Below are positions 10,044-16,702 of a stretch of 64,000 nt of DNA, piece after piece; position 1 is the first letter of the stretch, and each line of letters starts with the position of its first letter. A program made the position numbers and the translations under genes. Source of the DNA: Bacteroidia bacterium (GTDB lineage: Bacteria > Bacteroidota > Bacteroidia > NS11-12g > UBA9320); NCBI GenBank assembly GCA_965216465.1, contig CBDCFW010000006.1, forward strand, positions 853,244-917,243. The letters run 5' to 3'. The notes below the pieces were generated by a model. It saw nothing but the letters and a program-made list of their open reading frames with translations. It ran no database searches and was not told the origin of the DNA.

Positions 10044-10520
10044 TTAAGAAATAAGTTTTTGCCTGAGCATGAATTCAAGCTGTTGGTTGGTTTCAACCAG
10101 TCTTGATTTCATAAGGTGGTCTTGTTTCTTTTCTTGGTTTGCGTAAAAGGATGCTTCAATAGTTTGTGTTAAATCGTCTTTAACCCAAGGCTTGGTTAAA
10201 AATCTAAACACTTCACATCGATTTATAGCCTCAATCACAATATTAATGTCGTTACATCCTGTAATTAAGATCCTTCCAATATGTGGATGCTCAGTCTTTA
10301 ATCGCTCTAAAAGATCGACTCCAGAAATGTCTGGCATCATGTGGTCGGTAATTACAACATCAATCTCATTAGCCTCAATAATTTCAAGGGCTTTAGCAGC
10401 ACCATCGGCTAAGTGTACATTGAAAATTTTACGAAAATTTGCTCTGAAAGCTGTAAGATTTTGTGCTTCATCGTCAACGTAAAGCACGGAAATGATTTTG
10501 TTTAAATCCATGGTTATCAA
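10044..10520 (-). CDS. Stand-alone response-regulator receiver (REC-only, CheY-like)
   Basis: LYVDDE...DVVITDHMMPDISG...LTKP contains the phospho-acceptor Asp and Lys. There is no output domain. Confidence 0.8.
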   Translation of the reverse strand: MITMDLNKIISVLYVDDEAQNLTAFRANFRKIFNVHLADGAAKALEIIEANEIDVVITDHMMPDISGVDLLERLKTEHPHIGRILITGCNDINIVIEAINRCEVFRFLTKPWVKDDLTQTIEASFYANQEKKQDHLMKSRLVETNQQLEFMLRQKLIS

Positions 10521-10603
10521 TAAATAGTAGTACTACAAATATACATTAAATGTTGATAACTGCAAAACTTGGATGTATTTATATAGATGTTTGTATGATT
10601 ACA

Positions 10604-12847
10604 ATGACATATAAACCGCATTTCTATAGATTAACTAATTATGATGAAAGCTCCGCTTTTGAGCAACTAATTCGCGATAAATCTCCAAGGAAAATTGACA
10701 CAATTGCCTCACAGTTAAGGGAATTGGTGCTTTGTCAAAATCCGAGCATTGCTAAATCTGACCCTAAAGTCAACGAACTTATTAGCGAAAAATTGAATTC
10801 CGTTGATGGAAAATCTGACCATTATGGCGTGTGGGTTTACTATTCTTGGAGCAACACACTTATTCACATTCTTGATGAGAAAGAATTTATTGAAGTTCGA
10901 ACGAATCGAAACAACTATAAAATTACACCTGAAGAACAAGAGAAGCTCAGATCTAAAGTTATAGGCATCGCTGGATTGTCAGTTGGCCGATCTGCTGCAG
11001 TCACTCTTGCTCTTGAACGTGTGGGCGGTGAAATACGTTTGGCTGACTTTGACGAATTAGAATTGTCGAATCTCAACAGAATTAAAGCACCCTTGGCATG
11101 CATAGGATTGAATAAAGCCATTTCTACGGCACGTGAGATTGCTGAAATGGACCCATTTATTAATGTTGTGTGCTTTGACCAAGGATTGAATGAAGCAAAC
11201 CTCCACGAGTTTTTTACCCAGGGAAGTAAGCTTGATCTTTTTGTAGAAGAATGCGATGACATCAAAATCAAAATTCTATCGAGACAGAAAGCCAAAGAAT
11301 TACAGGTTCCTGTAATTATGGAAACAAGTGATAATTGCATTATCGATATTGAGCGATTTGATCTAGAACCAGAACGTCCGATAATTCATGGTCAGCTAGA
11401 AGGCTTGAGTCTAGAACAAGTAAAAGAACTCAAAACTCAAGAAGAAAAGCTGCCTTTTATTACTCGATTTTCAGGAGTTGATACTTTATCGCCACGAATG
11501 AAAAGTTCAATGATCGAAATTGAACGCACTATTCGTACTTGGCCTCAACTCGCATCGGATGTAACTTATGGAGCAGGCTTAGTAACTTATATGAGTCGAG
11601 AAATTTTGCTTGGACATCTATCCGAATCAGGTAGATATTCAGGTGATATCAAAGATATTTTCAAACAGAAAATGAATGCTCCAAAGCAAAGCAGCGGAGC
11701 AATTTTATCAACTAATGAGCAAGTTGGAGCAGTTATTAAGCGATTAAAGCCCATTGGCACAAGGAGTGAAGTTGAAATTCCAAAATCAATTCTAGAGAAA
11801 ATGGTTAAGGACTCGCTACGTGCTACTACTTTAGGTAACTTACAAATGCTGAATTATGCCTATATCAATAATGTACTTTACCTTCTTTACGATAAAGAAA
11901 GAGGATACTCCTTCTCAGATATGTATGGTATCGGCTCGAAAATTAGTCTTGGTGCAATTTTAGAAGGATTGAACGTGAGTGCGGCTTATCATGGATATGC
12001 ATTGGACATCAATTACCACCCTCATGCAGAAATAGAAGAGGTGGCTGCAGAAATTGTATTTGAACCAAAAACCAAAAACGGTTATCCAACTGAATCGGAA
12101 TACCTATCACTGCACGAACGCTATACGGACCGAAGCAGATCTAACAATGGCAAAGTTTTAGGCAGCAAAATTGATCAACTAAATGTGTCGTTAGCCGATA
12201 CAAACACCAGACTTCAGTATATTGATGATAGCAACAAAGTAGAGGCACTTTCGTCTATACTGGCTGAAATTGATCGCATTCGAATTCAGTATAAAAACAC
12301 ACACGCAGACTTATTTAATGAGCTGAAATTCCCGAAAGAAGGACAAGAGCTTAAGGAGGGGATTAATATCGACGAAGTTGATTTGAAACCATCAGAAAAG
12401 GTGGGCTTCCAAATGACTAAGGACTATAGAGCTATTGAATTACTTAATGATTTAGATTTAGGATCTAGGTTAGGAGAATTAACGTCGCAATTCATATCAA
12501 CTTCCAGCGGTGTAGGATTGCTTACAATTAATAAGCAGTTGGCGAATCAATTTTATGAGGGTGGAAGAGTTGTACAACGATTTTGGATGAAGTGTAGTGA
12601 ATTGGGTGTGGCATTACATCCTTTTACGGCATTAATGTTCTTCCATGAGCATATTAAGCGAGGAAATATTGAAAGCCCTTACAAAGAGAGGCTAGAAAAT
12701 AAAATCAACGAGTTTTATTCATATTTCGAGCTTGAAGATGAAATGTCTGAGCTGTTTATTTTCAGGTTGCTCAATCCTGATAAATCAAGTACGAAGAAAG
12801 TTACTACTAAAAGAAGAGATATAGATGAAATATTATTCACCGAATAA
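10604..12847 (+). CDS. E1-like (ThiF/MoeB-family) adenylyltransferase domain fused to a ~450-aa C-terminal region with two nitroreductase-fold-like halves. Alternative starts exist at 10550 and 10595.
   Basis: GIAGLSVGRSAAVTLALERVGGEIRLADFDELELSNLNR matches the GxGxxG and DxDxVexSNLNRQ motifs, and ...LDLFVEECDDIKIKILSRQKAKELQVPVIMET follows. The C-terminal segments LGNLQMLNYAYINNVLYLL and GRVVQRFWMKCSELGVALHPF resemble the nitroreductase FMN-pocket region. No CxxC, rhodanese or JAB domain is present. Confidence 0.6.
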   Translation: MTYKPHFYRLTNYDESSAFEQLIRDKSPRKIDTIASQLRELVLCQNPSIAKSDPKVNELISEKLNSVDGKSDHYGVWVYYSWSNTLIHILDEKEFIEVRTNRNNYKITPEEQEKLRSKVIGIAGLSVGRSAAVTLALERVGGEIRLADFDELELSNLNRIKAPLACIGLNKAISTAREIAEMDPFINVVCFDQGLNEANLHEFFTQGSKLDLFVEECDDIKIKILSRQKAKELQVPVIMETSDNCIIDIERFDLEPERPIIHGQLEGLSLEQVKELKTQEEKLPFITRFSGVDTLSPRMKSSMIEIERTIRTWPQLASDVTYGAGLVTYMSREILLGHLSESGRYSGDIKDIFKQKMNAPKQSSGAILSTNEQVGAVIKRLKPIGTRSEVEIPKSILEKMVKDSLRATTLGNLQMLNYAYINNVLYLLYDKERGYSFSDMYGIGSKISLGAILEGLNVSAAYHGYALDINYHPHAEIEEVAAEIVFEPKTKNGYPTESEYLSLHERYTDRSRSNNGKVLGSKIDQLNVSLADTNTRLQYIDDSNKVEALSSILAEIDRIRIQYKNTHADLFNELKFPKEGQELKEGINIDEVDLKPSEKVGFQMTKDYRAIELLNDLDLGSRLGELTSQFISTSSGVGLLTINKQLANQFYEGGRVVQRFWMKCSELGVALHPFTALMFFHEHIKRGNIESPYKERLENKINEFYSYFELEDEMSELFIFRLLNPDKSSTKKVTTKRRDIDEILFTE

Positions 12848-13535
12848 AGTGCTGACGGCGGCTCGAAAGATTAAAATCTTTGGTTTTTGGGCAAAAGACA
12901 ACCCTGACTATTGCAATATTTTTGAATATGGTCATAGAAAGGTACTCACAGACCATGGGTTGAACCTGACCTCAAATAACAACGATTGGAAAACGCAAGA
13001 GAATGTGTTTGTATTCTTGGCATTTGAAGGAAACACACCGGTTGGAGGTATTCGGTTTGAAAAATATGACCCGCGTTACAAACTTTCAGTTGAACGAGCA
13101 CTACACATGCATGACAAGAACATCATGGAATCAATCAAGGAGAATAACCTTGGTGAATTTGGAGAGGCCTGCGGCTTATGGAATGACAAAATCGTGTCTG
13201 GTGAAGGACTATCCGTAGTGCTATCTCATCTGTGCTTTATTTACGCACCCATGCTGGCTTGTGATCACATGATAGCCTTCAATGGAATCTATACTTACAA
13301 GATTTCACGAAGTATGGGAGGCCAAATTGTCGATAACATCGGTGATGAAGGCATTTTCAAATATCCAAACGAACGATTCAAGTCGGCGGTCTGGAAATTT
13401 GATCTACAGAACTTCCAAGGAACAACCAAAGAATTTGAACAGCGTGTGTTGCAATTGAGAAAGAATATAGAACCCGAGTTTATTGTAAATAATACCAAGA
13501 ATGGACTACATATTAAGTTGTCAAACAAAATTTAA
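12825..13535 (+). CDS. Hypothetical 236-aa protein, translationally coupled between the E1-like gene and the histidine kinase
   Basis: Its ATG overlaps the last 23 nt of the upstream CDS, and its 3' end overlaps the downstream HK start by 35 nt. No recognisable family, though there is a possible acyltransferase-like beta strand VFVFLAFEGNTPVGGIRF. Confidence 0.45.
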   Translation: MKYYSPNKVLTAARKIKIFGFWAKDNPDYCNIFEYGHRKVLTDHGLNLTSNNNDWKTQENVFVFLAFEGNTPVGGIRFEKYDPRYKLSVERALHMHDKNIMESIKENNLGEFGEACGLWNDKIVSGEGLSVVLSHLCFIYAPMLACDHMIAFNGIYTYKISRSMGGQIVDNIGDEGIFKYPNERFKSAVWKFDLQNFQGTTKEFEQRVLQLRKNIEPEFIVNNTKNGLHIKLSNKI

Positions 13536-15672
13536 ATCACTAATAAAGAAGGGGTTAATTGTTCTATTTGCCTTTCTTTCTTTACAATCTTTTTCACAAG
13601 AGGTAGTAACCATTCAGGCTGCTGATACTTCATTTCAAGTAGAAGGCGAGAAGGTATACCATGGTCTTTTAGCAAATGCTGACATGCTTAAAGACTCTAT
13701 TGCAACGATGGAGTGGGTGACATTCAACGCAACCAAGACTTTCAACTTAACTGAGGCACATACTGACCACGTTCTCCGTGTAACATTAAACAACGAATCT
13801 GCTGAAGAAAATTGGCATATAACCATTCCTGCCCCTCATTTAGACTCTGTAACCTTGGTTTATAACCTCGAAACCGAAAGTCCAGTTAAGCTATTGTCAG
13901 GAGACATGGTCTGTAGATCTGAACGACAAATTGATGATGCAAGTCACTCATTCGCAGTGCAAATCCCAAAGGGTGAAACGAAAACATTTTATGTGATTGT
14001 AAGAAGCGACGGTGCCAAAGTAATGCCGATAGTGATTGAATCACAACAAGCATTTTACGCTGGAGTGTCTACTCGAAACATATTCTTCGGGATTTTCTCG
14101 GGTATCATGGTTATCATGTTTGTATACAACCTAATTGTATTCTCATATACACGTGATAAGAACTATTTGTACTACATTTTTTATGTACTATTTATTTTCT
14201 TGGCTCAGTCTAACCTACTTGGAATCAGTTATTACTTTGCTGGATATTCGCCAACCATTAATAACTTATTGATGTATGTTGGGAGTGCTGTGTCAGGGGT
14301 GTTTGGAGGACTATTTCTACGACACTTCTTAAAAACCTATATCACGGTTCCTAAGTTGAATTTTATGCTATCTGTGGTAATTGCAGTGTACATTGTTCAA
14401 CTCTTGTTGGCCCTTCTCGGTTTCTTTGAATTTAGCTTTATCCTTATACAACTTGCTGGCTTCTTGGTCGTGATCACATTTGCGTCAATCTCAATTAAGC
14501 TTTCTATAGCAGGAGAGCGGTTTGCTAAGATATATCTTGTTGCGTGGACGCCAATTTTTGTAGGATTAGTATTCTTAATTCTCAGAGATAGCGGCGTGTT
14601 GCCTTTCACAGATTTGATCAATAATATGTTCCCTGTTGGTGTGATTTTAGAAACGGTAATGCTGTCTCTAGCATTGGCTAATCAGATTACTGTGCTTAAA
14701 CGCGATAAGGAAACAGCAAATCAGCGAGTAATTGAAGAAGTGAAAAAGAATGAAGAGCTGGTTAGAAATCAAAACATTGTACTTGAAGAGAAAGTGGCAC
14801 TTAGAACCCAAGAGTTAGAAAGTGCCCTTAATAATCTTAAATCGACTCAATCTCAACTGGTGCAATCTGAAAAGATGGCATCTCTGGGTGTGCTCACCGC
14901 TGGAATTGCACACGAGATTAATAATCCGATAAATTTTGTAACGGCAAATGTTATCCCGTTAAGAGAAAATATCGAGTCTTTGAGCGACCTCCTTTCAGAG
15001 TATAAAAATATTGATAGAAGCAATTTTGAAGACGAGCTTGCTCGAATCGAAAAGAAGGAAGAAGAAGTTGAGCTTGATTACATCTTAAAGGAGACTGACG
15101 AGTTAATTAATGGTATTGAAGAAGGAGCAAAACGTACCCATACCATTGTTGATGGACTAAAAACCTTCAGTAGGGGAGATGCTGGTTCAAATAGTCTTGC
15201 AGACCTTAATGTTGGTATTAACAGTACGCTATCGGTACTTAAAAGTCGTTTAAATGGAGTCAAAGTAACTAAACAGCTTGCTTCTGATCTTCCAAGAATT
15301 AATTGTCAAATTGGTAAAATAAACCAAGTATTTTTAAATCTGGTAAACAATGCACTCGACGCATTGGAAATTGTAAATGGTCCAAATTCTAATCAATCTA
15401 ATATCGTAATTAAGTCTTATTCAAAAGAGGATAAGATATACGTTGAAATTCAAGATGATGGTAATGGAATCAGTGAAAATGACCAAAAGAAAATATTTGA
15501 GCCATTTTTTACCACCAAGCCAATTGGAAAAGGAACAGGTTTAGGGCTATCTATTTCGTACGGAATAATTGAAGAACATCATGGTGAAATGAAGCTGGAA
15601 TCTGAAGTGGGCAAAGGCACCACATTTACCGTTATTATTCCTGTAACTGATGACGAGAGCGAGCCTCTTTAA
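13501..15672 (+). CDS. 7TMR-DISM (extracellular DISMED2 + 7TM) sensor histidine kinase
   Basis: Signal peptide, then a periplasmic domain and a 7-TM block. The H-box is ASLGVLTAGIAHEINNPINF. The HATPase N/G boxes are LNLVNNALDA...DDGNGI...GTGLGLS. Confidence 0.85.
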   Translation: MDYILSCQTKFKSLIKKGLIVLFAFLSLQSFSQEVVTIQAADTSFQVEGEKVYHGLLANADMLKDSIATMEWVTFNATKTFNLTEAHTDHVLRVTLNNESAEENWHITIPAPHLDSVTLVYNLETESPVKLLSGDMVCRSERQIDDASHSFAVQIPKGETKTFYVIVRSDGAKVMPIVIESQQAFYAGVSTRNIFFGIFSGIMVIMFVYNLIVFSYTRDKNYLYYIFYVLFIFLAQSNLLGISYYFAGYSPTINNLLMYVGSAVSGVFGGLFLRHFLKTYITVPKLNFMLSVVIAVYIVQLLLALLGFFEFSFILIQLAGFLVVITFASISIKLSIAGERFAKIYLVAWTPIFVGLVFLILRDSGVLPFTDLINNMFPVGVILETVMLSLALANQITVLKRDKETANQRVIEEVKKNEELVRNQNIVLEEKVALRTQELESALNNLKSTQSQLVQSEKMASLGVLTAGIAHEINNPINFVTANVIPLRENIESLSDLLSEYKNIDRSNFEDELARIEKKEEEVELDYILKETDELINGIEEGAKRTHTIVDGLKTFSRGDAGSNSLADLNVGINSTLSVLKSRLNGVKVTKQLASDLPRINCQIGKINQVFLNLVNNALDALEIVNGPNSNQSNIVIKSYSKEDKIYVEIQDDGNGISENDQKKIFEPFFTTKPIGKGTGLGLSISYGIIEEHHGEMKLESEVGKGTTFTVIIPVTDDESEPL

Positions 15673-16702
15673 TAATTCCTCGAATCCAAATAGGAAATAC
15701 AATAATTCCCAAGAATAAATACGGGAAGTAACTAATTAATCGCCACAAAACGGAGGTACTGTTTGCCAACTGTGGGTTGCTGAAGTATTCCCCCAAAAAT
15801 GCAGGAAAAAGCAACTCCGCGAGACCACTTGCACCTGGAGTTACAGGCAACATTAAGGCTCCCCACATGATTAATTGACGAGCAAATATCTCAAGCACTT
15901 CTGTTCCGTGACCAAATGCTAAAATCAAGAAGTTTACTAAGGCAAAGCGAGCAGTCCAAGAAAATAGGGTCGCTCCAAATGCTTTAAACCAAAAAGGTCT
16001 TCTTTTTAGTCTAAATTCTTCTGACGCTACCAATAACTCATCACCCCAAACCTTAGCATTTTCTTTCCATCTTCTTAGTAATGGAAGTCTAAAAATCCCT
16101 TTTAGAATACCACTTACAACTTGGGGACGTATGAAAATCCCGACATAAACAACAACAGCCCAAACGATGAGAATAACGTAAGATGCGATGAAGTATCCTT
16201 TCATCAACGAGCCACTGAAAACCCCAATCTGACCCGGAATTTGACTATTAAGTCCAGTAAAAATTAGAAGAAGTGGAACAGCTAGAACATAGAACAATAC
16301 GTCTAAATAAGATGTAGCGAGAACAATAGCTGTAGATTTTCCTGTTCCAAGTTTTTTCTCTTGTGCCAGTAAGATAAAGGCTGCAGCGGTGCCTCCAACT
16401 ATTCCCGGTGAAATTGCCGAAGAGAATTCCCAGAGCACAACAAGGTGAAAGCACTTTCTCCAACTCAATTTTTCATCACTTAAAATCCGAAGGCGGTATA
16501 CGTATCCCAAGAAACGGAATCCGACCATGATTAAAGCAAGGATAAACCAAAAAAGTACATTAACTCCCCAGTCTATGTCTTTGTAGGCATTTGGATCAAA
16601 ATCTCGATAGAAAAAATAGAACACAACAGCGACCCCTATAACGATAGGAATTATGAGGTTACGTCCCTCAAAATATTTTCGCAGTTGTCGTACTGAACTC
16701 AA
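15635..16702 (-). CDS. UPF0104 / lysylphosphatidylglycerol-synthase-TM-like (flippase-like) integral membrane protein
   Basis: Eight or more TM helices and a GTGKSTAIVLATSYLD segment. It overlaps the IDH stop by 4 nt. Confidence 0.7.
   Translation of the reverse strand: MSSVRQLRKYFEGRNLIIPIVIGVAVVFYFFYRDFDPNAYKDIDWGVNVLFWFILALIMVGFRFLGYVYRLRILSDEKLSWRKCFHLVVLWEFSSAISPGIVGGTAAAFILLAQEKKLGTGKSTAIVLATSYLDVLFYVLAVPLLLIFTGLNSQIPGQIGVFSGSLMKGYFIASYVILIVWAVVVYVGIFIRPQVVSGILKGIFRLPLLRRWKENAKVWGDELLVASEEFRLKRRPFWFKAFGATLFSWTARFALVNFLILAFGHGTEVLEIFARQLIMWGALMLPVTPGASGLAELLFPAFLGEYFSNPQLANSTSVLWRLISYFPYLFLGIIVFPIWIRGIIKEARSRHQLQE

Follow-up and report, generated by a model that had tools for sequence, protein, structure and literature searches.

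This analysis concerns four genes in a 64,000-nucleotide (nt) stretch of DNA from a Bacteroidia bacterium (GenBank assembly GCA_965216465.1, contig CBDCFW010000006.1, positions 853,244 to 917,243 of the forward strand), and the whole of this stretch is referred to here as the window. Three open reading frames (ORFs) encode a 765-amino-acid (aa) enzyme, in which an E1-like adenylation half is joined to a flavin-dependent oxidase half (E1-FDO), a 236-aa protein with a GNAT fold and a 723-aa 7TMR-DISM histidine kinase. A fourth gene, transcribed divergently, encodes a regulator made up of a receiver (REC) domain only (Table 1). The ORF list agrees with the initial annotation on the four frames, on the divergent receiver gene, on the 23-nt overlap of the 765-aa and 236-aa frames and on the 35-nt overlap of the latter with the kinase frame, and these overlapping or abutting genes indicate a single operon for E1, GNAT and kinase. 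Orthologs of the enzyme and the regulator are 748 aa and 155 aa long, so the true start of the E1 gene is probably at 10595 or 10604 and that of the regulator gene is probably the ATG at 10511, which gives a regulator of 155 aa. With these revised starts the divergent gap would be about 83–92 bp instead of the 30 bp at the lower end of the range in the initial annotation; the divergence itself stands.

Table 1. Features of the four-gene cassette and its immediate surroundings, in positions of the window.
Feature	Position	Strand	Remarks
REC-only regulator gene	10044–10520	−	From the ORF list
Conserved C-terminal tail of the regulator	10044–10085	−	Last 14 residues
Divergent intergenic region	10521–10594		Between the regulator gene and the E1-FDO/GNAT/kinase operon; read from the sequence
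765-aa E1/oxidase ORF	10550–12847	+	From the ORF list
N-terminal domain of the enzyme	10607–10918	+	Residues ~20–123; strongly conserved in 87 homologs; inside the NF005901 profile; kept in E1-only orthologs
ThiF/E1-like adenylation domain (predicted cyclase)	10919–11644	+	Pfam ThiF at residues 124–256, E 1.6e-16
Codon of D236	11255–11257	+	Likely equivalent of TrzS D217
Acg-type tandem nitroreductase-fold domain (flavin-dependent oxidase)	11765–12847	+	Predicted C-alpha/C-beta desaturase
Degenerate 'APSGGNxQPW' segment	11822–11854	+	Residues 425–435
236-aa GNAT ORF	12825–13535	+	
723-aa 7TMR-DISM kinase ORF	13501–15672	+	
Codon of the H-box His471	14911–14913	+	
LPG_synthase_TM gene	15635–16702	−	38-nt convergent overlap with the end of the kinase gene

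By profile search, the 765-aa protein is a full-length member of the Rv1355c family (TrzS/OxzB-like). It reaches 645.4 bits against the NCBIfam model NF005901 ('Rv1355c family'; cutoff 476), residues 20–760 being aligned to positions 10–716 of the 722 in the profile, and it shares about 30% identity over about 85% of its length with actinobacterial proteins of the family. The architecture that the initial annotation had recognised as Rv1355c-type, with an N-terminal domain, a ThiF/E1 core and a tandem nitroreductase region, is recovered by Pfam ThiF, NF005901 and NF047509. The AlphaFold (AF2) model of the protein, built from 87 homologs, has a predicted local distance difference test (pLDDT) score of 88.9.

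Rv1355c is TrzS, which makes N-acyl tryptazolones together with the acyltransferase TrzA (Rv1356c); the D217A exchange in TrzS abolishes cyclisation and the R540A exchange abolishes desaturation (PMC12856293). The first oxazolone synthetase to be described is OxzA/OxzB of Pseudoalteromonas rubra, which yields tyrazolones and phenazolones (bioRxiv 10.1101/2020.06.11.147165), and TyzACB (Rv2336-Rv2338c) of Mycobacterium tuberculosis is a split version that forms an N-acyl tyrazolone pathway (PMC10404671). The substrates of TrzAS, OxzAB and TyzACB are N-acyl amino acids, not peptides (PMC12856293; PMC10404671; bioRxiv 10.1101/2020.06.11.147165). The link to peptide modification that the initial annotation had drawn for the family is thus superseded, as Rv1355c is TrzS, OxzB is its proteobacterial counterpart and both have been shown to be oxazolone synthetases. 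In the same way, the substrate that had been called unknown becomes predictable by homology as a class, though not as a specific amino acid and acyl chain. The 765-aa protein is predicted to be a bifunctional N-acyl-amino-acid cyclase/desaturase, that is, an oxazolone synthetase. The absence of YcaO, ThiS/MoaD and precursor genes had been correctly noticed, and it is expected, because the characterised family members act on N-acyl amino acids.

The adenylation domain retains a Gly-rich loop (G139-G146), D166/D168, N174/N176/R177, K189 and the E234-C235-D236 motif, and of these G139-G146, D166, R177, K189 and E234-C235-D236 are invariant among 87 Bacteroidota and 4 actinobacterial sequences. 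D236 likely corresponds to the catalytic D217 of TrzS, an assignment made by motif and spacing and not by alignment with Rv1355c. The distance from the aspartate of the ECD motif to the arginine of the DRIR motif is 325 residues in a Mycolicibacterium homolog, compared with 323 residues between D217 and R540 in TrzS, and because of this near-equal spacing D236 and R578 are the likely equivalents of the two TrzS residues. In Foldseek searches the domain matched AclA (9egb), ThiF, MoeB, TcdA, PaaA and MccB, and a profile of 22 homologs also matched the structures of ThiF, MoeB, TcdA and UBA5. The top match of residues ~110–260, both in structure and in sequence, is PDB 9egb/9egc, released in 2025, which is AclA of Tenacibaculum discolor with substrate; AclA is a ThiF-like protein from another Bacteroidota species, and a literature search on it gave nothing relevant. 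The N-terminal domain may, like the N-terminal clamp of MccB or PaaA, serve in substrate binding. The Foldseek alignments to PaaA and MccB span more than 330 columns, with a high root-mean-square deviation.

The initial annotation had named the nitroreductase fold of the C-terminal half as one of two points on which its proposal could be refuted, and this fold was found. Residues 422–695 match NF047509, the model of the Acg-family flavin mononucleotide (FMN) oxidoreductases, at E 3.7e-18, the 22-homolog profile matches the Acg nitroreductase structure PDB 2ymv at E 1.1e-17, and Foldseek aligns the AlphaFold model to 2ymv at E 1.4e-13 with a target TM-score of 0.75. The window enzyme keeps R524, R528, R578 and E591, and these residues are invariant in the alignment with four actinobacterial Rv1355c-family proteins. 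The segment 'LGNLQMLNY' is a degenerate copy of the 'APSGGNxQPW' motif that is near-invariant in the family. In the oxidase half, 7 of the 30 near-invariant positions are changed in the window enzyme (P426T, S427T, P433M, W434L, N473G, N527D and W594F, four of them within this motif), compared with 6 of 116 in the E1 half and with 0–2 of 30 in the oxidase of typical members. These substitutions are common to the window enzyme and its nearest relatives, and desaturation may be weakened or altered in this clade, with an oxidase function that is relaxed or changed.

Among the related loci examined, those of three lineages carry an E1-only enzyme of 351–366 aa (L001, 8936–9991; L004, 5700–6800; L008, 8834–9922; also L009), which shares 42–48% identity with the N-terminal half of the window enzyme, N-terminal domain included. 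No nitroreductase-type ORF was detectable within the fetched loci L001, L004 and L008/L009. The cassette can therefore be kept without the oxidase, since these lineages retain the other genes without an oxidase ORF, and what seems functionally essential in it is the set of GNAT, E1, kinase and REC protein.

The 236-aa protein, which the initial annotation had left as unclassifiable, can be placed by its AlphaFold model (pLDDT 93.7). The model has the alpha/beta/alpha fold of the GNAT superfamily, and its nearest solved structures are FeeM and the acyl-homoserine-lactone (AHL) synthases. On this modelled fold the protein is a FeeM/LuxI-type acyltransferase that occupies the position of TrzA or OxzA, and it is predicted to be an N-acyl amino acid synthase, the counterpart of TrzA, OxzA and TyzA. 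G75 of a 'GGIR' motif and E114 of an 'EACGLW' motif are invariant among its relatives, of which a word-indexed search found six and an exhaustive profile search 486 cluster representatives. The window protein itself has no Pfam or NCBIfam match at E ≤1 and no sequence match in the PDB, and among 105 members of its family there are weak matches to Acetyltransf_1 in 29 and to FeeM in 4. By sequence, it belongs to a separate and so far unnamed GNAT family. In hhalign, the profile of this family aligns with the 252–260-aa genes beside Rhodococcus Rv1355c-family genes over about 170 columns (E 4.7e-6 and 1.7e-6; probability 86–90%), with the GG.R, E...W and YP motifs in register; the orthology of these Rhodococcus neighbours to TrzA is assumed. 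The profile did not match the hypothetical gene downstream of the Mycolicibacterium homolog or the Streptomyces 'GNAT family protein' beside an E1-only homolog. Some other members of the GNAT family are fused to further domains: P0127 (570 aa) has an N-terminal TIR domain and P0095 (662 aa) has leucine-rich repeats. In another member, P0015 (479 aa), two stretches are matched.

The two-component wiring proposed in the initial annotation, a 7TMR-DISM kinase with a REC-only regulator, is borne out by the Pfam domains, and both proteins look active, as the residues listed below are present. In the kinase, 7TMR-DISM_7TM (PF07695; E 2e-37), DISMED2 (PF07696; 5e-11) and HATPase_c (PF02518; 8e-25) are all above their cutoffs, and HisKA scores 25.2 against a cutoff of 26.9. 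A periplasmic DISMED2 domain (residues ~78–179) is followed by seven transmembrane helices (193–394), the H-box with His471 and the N, G1, F and G2 boxes. The regulator matches Response_reg over residues 12–121 (E 1e-21), with the phospho-acceptor Asp59, the acidic pair D16/D17, T87 and K110 present, and beyond the receiver it has only a C-terminal helix of about 35 aa. Domain searches in the window and the related loci found no DNA-binding domain in any cassette regulator, so a relay fits better than direct autoregulation.

In most cassettes a REC-HisKA-HATPase hybrid of about 365 aa lies directly 3' of the 7TMR-DISM kinase gene (for example L006, 10805–11917, and L008, 12205–13290), often followed by another small REC gene. 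This hybrid has been lost from the window lineage and is genuinely absent from at least five loci. The most conserved part of the REC-only regulator is its last 14 residues ('NxQLEF[MLY]LRQKL[IL]S'; 74 distinct orthologs), where the commonest residue has a mean frequency of 0.84, compared with 0.68 in the REC core, and 73 of 84 end in [LI]S. When the tail is aligned with the H-box helix of the REC-kinase hybrids, it shows a 7-residue gap that removes the phospho-accepting His. By this comparison the regulator resembles a shortened paralog of the hybrid that lacks the His, and it may dock on the dimerisation domain of a kinase. The C-terminus of the regulator had also been considered as a substrate of the E1, and after the alignment with the hybrids the H-box remnant was preferred.

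The conservation of the cassette was followed by a scan anchored on the E1-FDO alignment, with one genome per GTDB species, which found at least 584 relatives of the enzyme; the counts that follow are for the best 80 of these (36–39% identity), with gene content determined by hidden Markov models of the cassette proteins run on six-frame ORFs. All 80 loci carry Bacteroidota-type cassettes, from genera that include Pedobacter, Mucilaginibacter, Daejeonella, Arcticibacter and Cytophaga and from Chitinophagaceae and Cryomorphaceae, and three records titled as other phyla are probably mis-binned contigs. The GNAT gene is adjacent in 79 loci and the 7TMR-DISM kinase gene in 77, and every miss (one and three, respectively) falls at a contig end. 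A REC-only regulator gene lies next to the cassette in 71 loci and the additional REC-kinase hybrid in 60; the E1 gene comes first in 56 loci and the GNAT gene in 23. Thus, E1, GNAT and kinase genes occur together wherever the contig reaches far enough, and the linkage to the kinase is conserved and not accidental, the alternative by which the initial annotation would have been refuted.

Only 1 of the 80 loci has the genes that flank the cassette in the window, pdxA and an LPG_synthase_TM gene, which shows that the four or five genes travel as a unit. In the close and middle-distance GNAT relatives the same order of divergent REC, E1, GNAT and 7TMR-DISM kinase is seen within a shared wider neighbourhood, and because of this sharing these loci prove little alone. 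More telling is Sphingobacterium yanglingense, where the order is another one (GNAT, an E1 without oxidase, kinase and REC-kinase hybrid, with the REC-only gene on the opposite strand) and the context is wholly different. We hold a functional linkage of the four genes to be highly probable. Some loci show variations: two tandem GNAT genes (L035, 10427–11895), a second kinase and REC-kinase pair on the opposite strand (L049, 13552–16824, minus strand), an E1-FDO split into two ORFs, probably by a frameshift (L073, 7950–10262), and two REC-only copies in eight loci, including L015, L021, L048, L052, L064 and L067.

On this basis a pathway can be proposed. The 236-aa GNAT would N-acylate an amino acid with an acyl group from acyl-coenzyme A or from acyl carrier protein, as suggested by its fold, its homology and its position compared with TrzA, OxzA and TyzA. 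The E1 would then adenylate the N-acyl amino acid, and attack by the amide oxygen would close a 5(4H)-oxazolone ring, a step that membership of the Rv1355c/TrzS family and the retained catalytic residues make plausible. The fused oxidase would next desaturate the C-alpha/C-beta bond to give a conjugated oxazolone; for the window lineage this step is uncertain, given the degenerate flavin-pocket motif and the loss of the domain in sister lineages. Finally, the kinase would perceive the product, or the N-acyl amino acid intermediate, and signal to the REC-only regulator and, in most other species, also to the REC-kinase hybrid. This last step is suggested by the gene linkage, which is strictly conserved, and by the missing DNA-binding output, after the manner of a LuxM/LuxN or CqsA/CqsS pair. 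N-acyl-amino-acid/oxazolone chemistry for the window pair is quite probable. That the whole cassette is an oxazolone or N-acyl-amino-acid synthase coupled to a dedicated phosphorelay, signal and receptor together, is in our estimate an even chance, and the specific proposal that the 7TMR-DISM kinase is the receptor of the pathway product falls a little short of that.

The enzyme pair can be compared with the known systems one by one. It resembles TrzA/TrzS of M. tuberculosis, M. smegmatis and Rhodococcus jostii in domain order, in NCBIfam family, in the ECD aspartate and the DRIR arginine, in having a GNAT-fold neighbour and in the presence of signalling genes nearby, which are cyclic-di-GMP enzymes there and a two-component system here. 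It differs in its identity of about 30%, in phylum (Bacteroidota, not Actinomycetota), in an acyltransferase gene that lies downstream and overlaps the E1 gene, in the 7TMR-DISM kinase and REC protein and in the partly degenerate oxidase motif. A dedicated 7TMR-DISM kinase with a REC protein was not found in the six actinobacterial plasmid loci examined. Two of these loci, from Rhodococcus qingshengii plasmids (L092, 3626–5536; L093, 2865–4543), have a GGDEF gene as one neighbour of the Rv1355c-family gene and a hypothetical GNAT-like gene, divergently oriented, as another, and the GGDEF flank mirrors the cyclic-di-GMP neighbourhood of M. tuberculosis trzAS. Signalling genes of different kinds therefore accompany the oxazolone-type pathway in two phyla. 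A Streptomyces sp. NBC_01426 plasmid (L091, 5929–7703) carries an E1-only homolog with 40% identity to window residues 20–378, N-terminal domain included. Its gene overlaps that of a 201-aa 'GNAT family protein', which is no relative of the Bacteroidota GNAT family, and no kinase is present. Similar E1-only matches occur on plasmids of Kitasatospora and other Streptomyces, and this ThiF-like clade seems to pair with acyltransferases generally.

OxzA/OxzB, compared here by its published description and not by direct sequence comparison, is likewise an N-acyltransferase and a ThiF-nitroreductase di-domain enzyme in one operon with a small-molecule substrate. It was described from 56 alpha-, beta- and gammaproteobacteria as an operon of two genes, in some cases clustered with glycosyltransferase, polyketide synthase or nonribosomal peptide synthetase genes, and the paper mentions no kinase. 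TyzA/TyzB/TyzC has the three activities that are predicted here, and FeeM and an AHL synthase are the structures nearest to TyzA, which matches the result for the 236-aa protein. A parallel to the E1-only cassettes (L001, L004 and L008) is TyzB, a ThiF homolog that stands alone, with the difference that in Tyz the cyclase and the oxidase are separate and both present, while the E1-only Bacteroidota cassettes have no oxidase gene at the locus. LuxM/LuxN and CqsA/CqsS of Vibrio also place the synthase of an acylated molecule beside a polytopic membrane histidine kinase, with a phosphorelay output and no DNA-binding partner in the operon. Their synthase chemistry and receptor family are unrelated to those of the window cassette, whose receptor would be a 7TMR-DISM protein. 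Proteobacterial loci with FeeM-like N-acyl amino acid synthases share the genomic association with a two-component system, but they contain no ThiF cyclase/oxidase, and the kinase family, the regulator (sigma-54 type) and the wider context are different.

Several points weigh against the proposed synthase and receptor. The window GNAT has no significant match to the Pfam FeeM (PF21926) or Autoinducer-synthase models, and its likeness to TrzA, OxzA and TyzA comes by way of fold, position and remote homology. The loci L001, L004 and L008 keep GNAT, E1, kinase and REC but lack the oxidase, and together with the 7 of 30 substitutions in the window oxidase this means that the relevant molecule may not be a desaturated oxazolone. 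Linkage cannot separate a kinase that senses the product from a kinase pathway that controls the enzymes, and the connection between oxazolone and receptor is drawn by analogy, from genomic logic only. Moreover, 7TMR-DISM kinases with known inputs answer other cues, as LadS does to calcium. The counts of conservation describe the 80 best-scoring loci. In the work of de Rond et al., the addition of oxazolones caused no phenotype.

The same chemistry could also run with the arrow reversed. The kinase would sense a cue from outside or from the envelope, for example antibiotic, oxidative or surface stress, the REC-only protein would control the GNAT and the E1-FDO, possibly by binding these enzymes, and the product would be a protective or membrane-active lipid. 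The linkage data fit this arrangement equally well, and published work gives it some parallels, as proteobacterial oxazolone production is induced by sub-inhibitory antibiotics, the tyz genes of M. tuberculosis are linked to oxidative-stress resistance and actinobacterial tryptazolones mostly remain intracellular. However, no DNA-binding or enzyme-regulating output domain joins the relay to the operon, although two-component-controlled biosynthetic operons usually include a DNA-binding regulator, and the REC-kinase hybrid in 60 of the 80 loci suggests a relay directed outward instead of a simple on/off switch. We consider the reversed arrow unlikely, though a serious rival. It and the synthase and receptor proposal are each far ahead of two further explanations, both of which we judge much less likely.

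In one of these, the E1 product, especially the saturated azlactone expected from cassettes with a missing or decayed oxidase, would be a reactive acyl donor that acylates a cassette protein or an envelope component monitored by the kinase, and the cassette would serve modification and sensing without a diffusible signal. 5(4H)-Oxazolones are, according to the literature, activated esters that are hydrolysed within hours, oxidase-less E1 cassettes are kept in three lineages, the window oxidase motif is degenerate and the extreme C-terminus of the regulator is unusually conserved, all of which would suit such a role. Against this, it has no precedent in the literature on TrzS, OxzB and TyzB, most cassettes have an intact oxidase, and the conserved tail is better read as a remnant of a kinase H-box helix without its His; the idea is improbable. 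The other explanation, in which the E1 and a SagB-like dehydrogenase act on the C-terminus of a small protein or ribosomal peptide, has in its favour the N-terminal domain ahead of the ThiF core and the structural likeness to the peptide-modifying PaaA and MccB. The characterised members of the same family, however, act on N-acyl amino acids (PMC12856293; bioRxiv 10.1101/2020.06.11.147165), and in place of a precursor or a YcaO the obligate partner gene encodes a FeeM-like acyltransferase. No precursor peptide, YcaO or carrier-protein partner was found among the ORFs of 7–19 kb or the small ORFs around the intergenic region, and across the 80 loci the conserved partners are GNAT, kinase and REC proteins only. 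In the divergent intergenic region, one of the two places where the initial annotation had proposed to look for small ORFs, there is no ORF of 20 aa or more with precursor features, and the regulator tail ends in L-[LI]-S without Gly-Gly. Peptide modification is accordingly the least credible of these explanations, and we regard it as very improbable.

The surroundings of the cassette add little to this argument. Both promoters presumably lie in the divergent intergenic region. A scan for the sigma-70 consensus gave 11 sites against 18.7 expected from shuffles, and this consensus does not model Bacteroidota promoters; a terminator scan remained at background level. Base composition is even along the whole window, and housekeeping genes border the cassette on both sides, with pdxA, rpmF, plsX and fabH upstream and with icd and rpoD downstream, which together place it in the core chromosome. 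A reading as a defence system was considered and rejected, as PADLOC returned weak generic matches for the E1 only and none for GNAT, kinase or REC.

The enzymes are new, distant members of a known oxazolone pathway. In open-access papers and bioRxiv we found no description of the oxazolone pair in Bacteroidota, of this GNAT family or of a coupling to a 7TMR-DISM kinase, which agrees with the view in the initial annotation that the arrangement had not been described. Nothing relevant came up in the same sources on 7TMR-DISM proteins combined with ThiF or with Bacteroidetes, or on a histidine kinase combined with synthases of oxazolones or N-acyl amino acids. A 2025 survey lists N-acyl tyrosine producers from Pseudomonadota, Actinomycetota and Planctomycetota only, and the present finding extends the oxazolone pathway to a fourth phylum. 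It also provides the GNAT family of 486 cluster representatives, so far without a name, with a probable function, and it suggests a candidate class of ligands for one subfamily of 7TMR-DISM receptors.

The discoverers of bacterial oxazolones call their physiological role unresolved and have speculated on signalling, with no receptor (PMC12856293; de Rond et al.). The authors of the oxazolone papers already suspect such a role and have noted the cyclic-di-GMP genes beside trzAS. In at least 77 sequenced Bacteroidota species, the oxazolone pair lies in one operon with a specific membrane kinase and receivers. Cultured carriers include strains of Pedobacter, Daejeonella, Cryomorpha and Arcticibacter, so the hypothesis of a synthase with its receptor is testable in culture. 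Bacteroidota are not known to use AHL signalling of the LuxI/LuxR type. More tentatively, and with rather more doubt than for the receptor itself, the cassette might represent a cell-cell or self signalling system found throughout the phylum, in which an N-acyl amino acid or oxazolone autoinducer, the product of the FeeM/LuxI-like acyltransferase and the ThiF-type cyclase with the oxidase or without it, would be detected by the 7TMR-DISM kinase and relayed through the REC-kinase hybrid and the His-less REC protein. If this is true, it would provide the first physiological role and the first receptor for oxazolones, and a native acyl-signal system for Bacteroidota.

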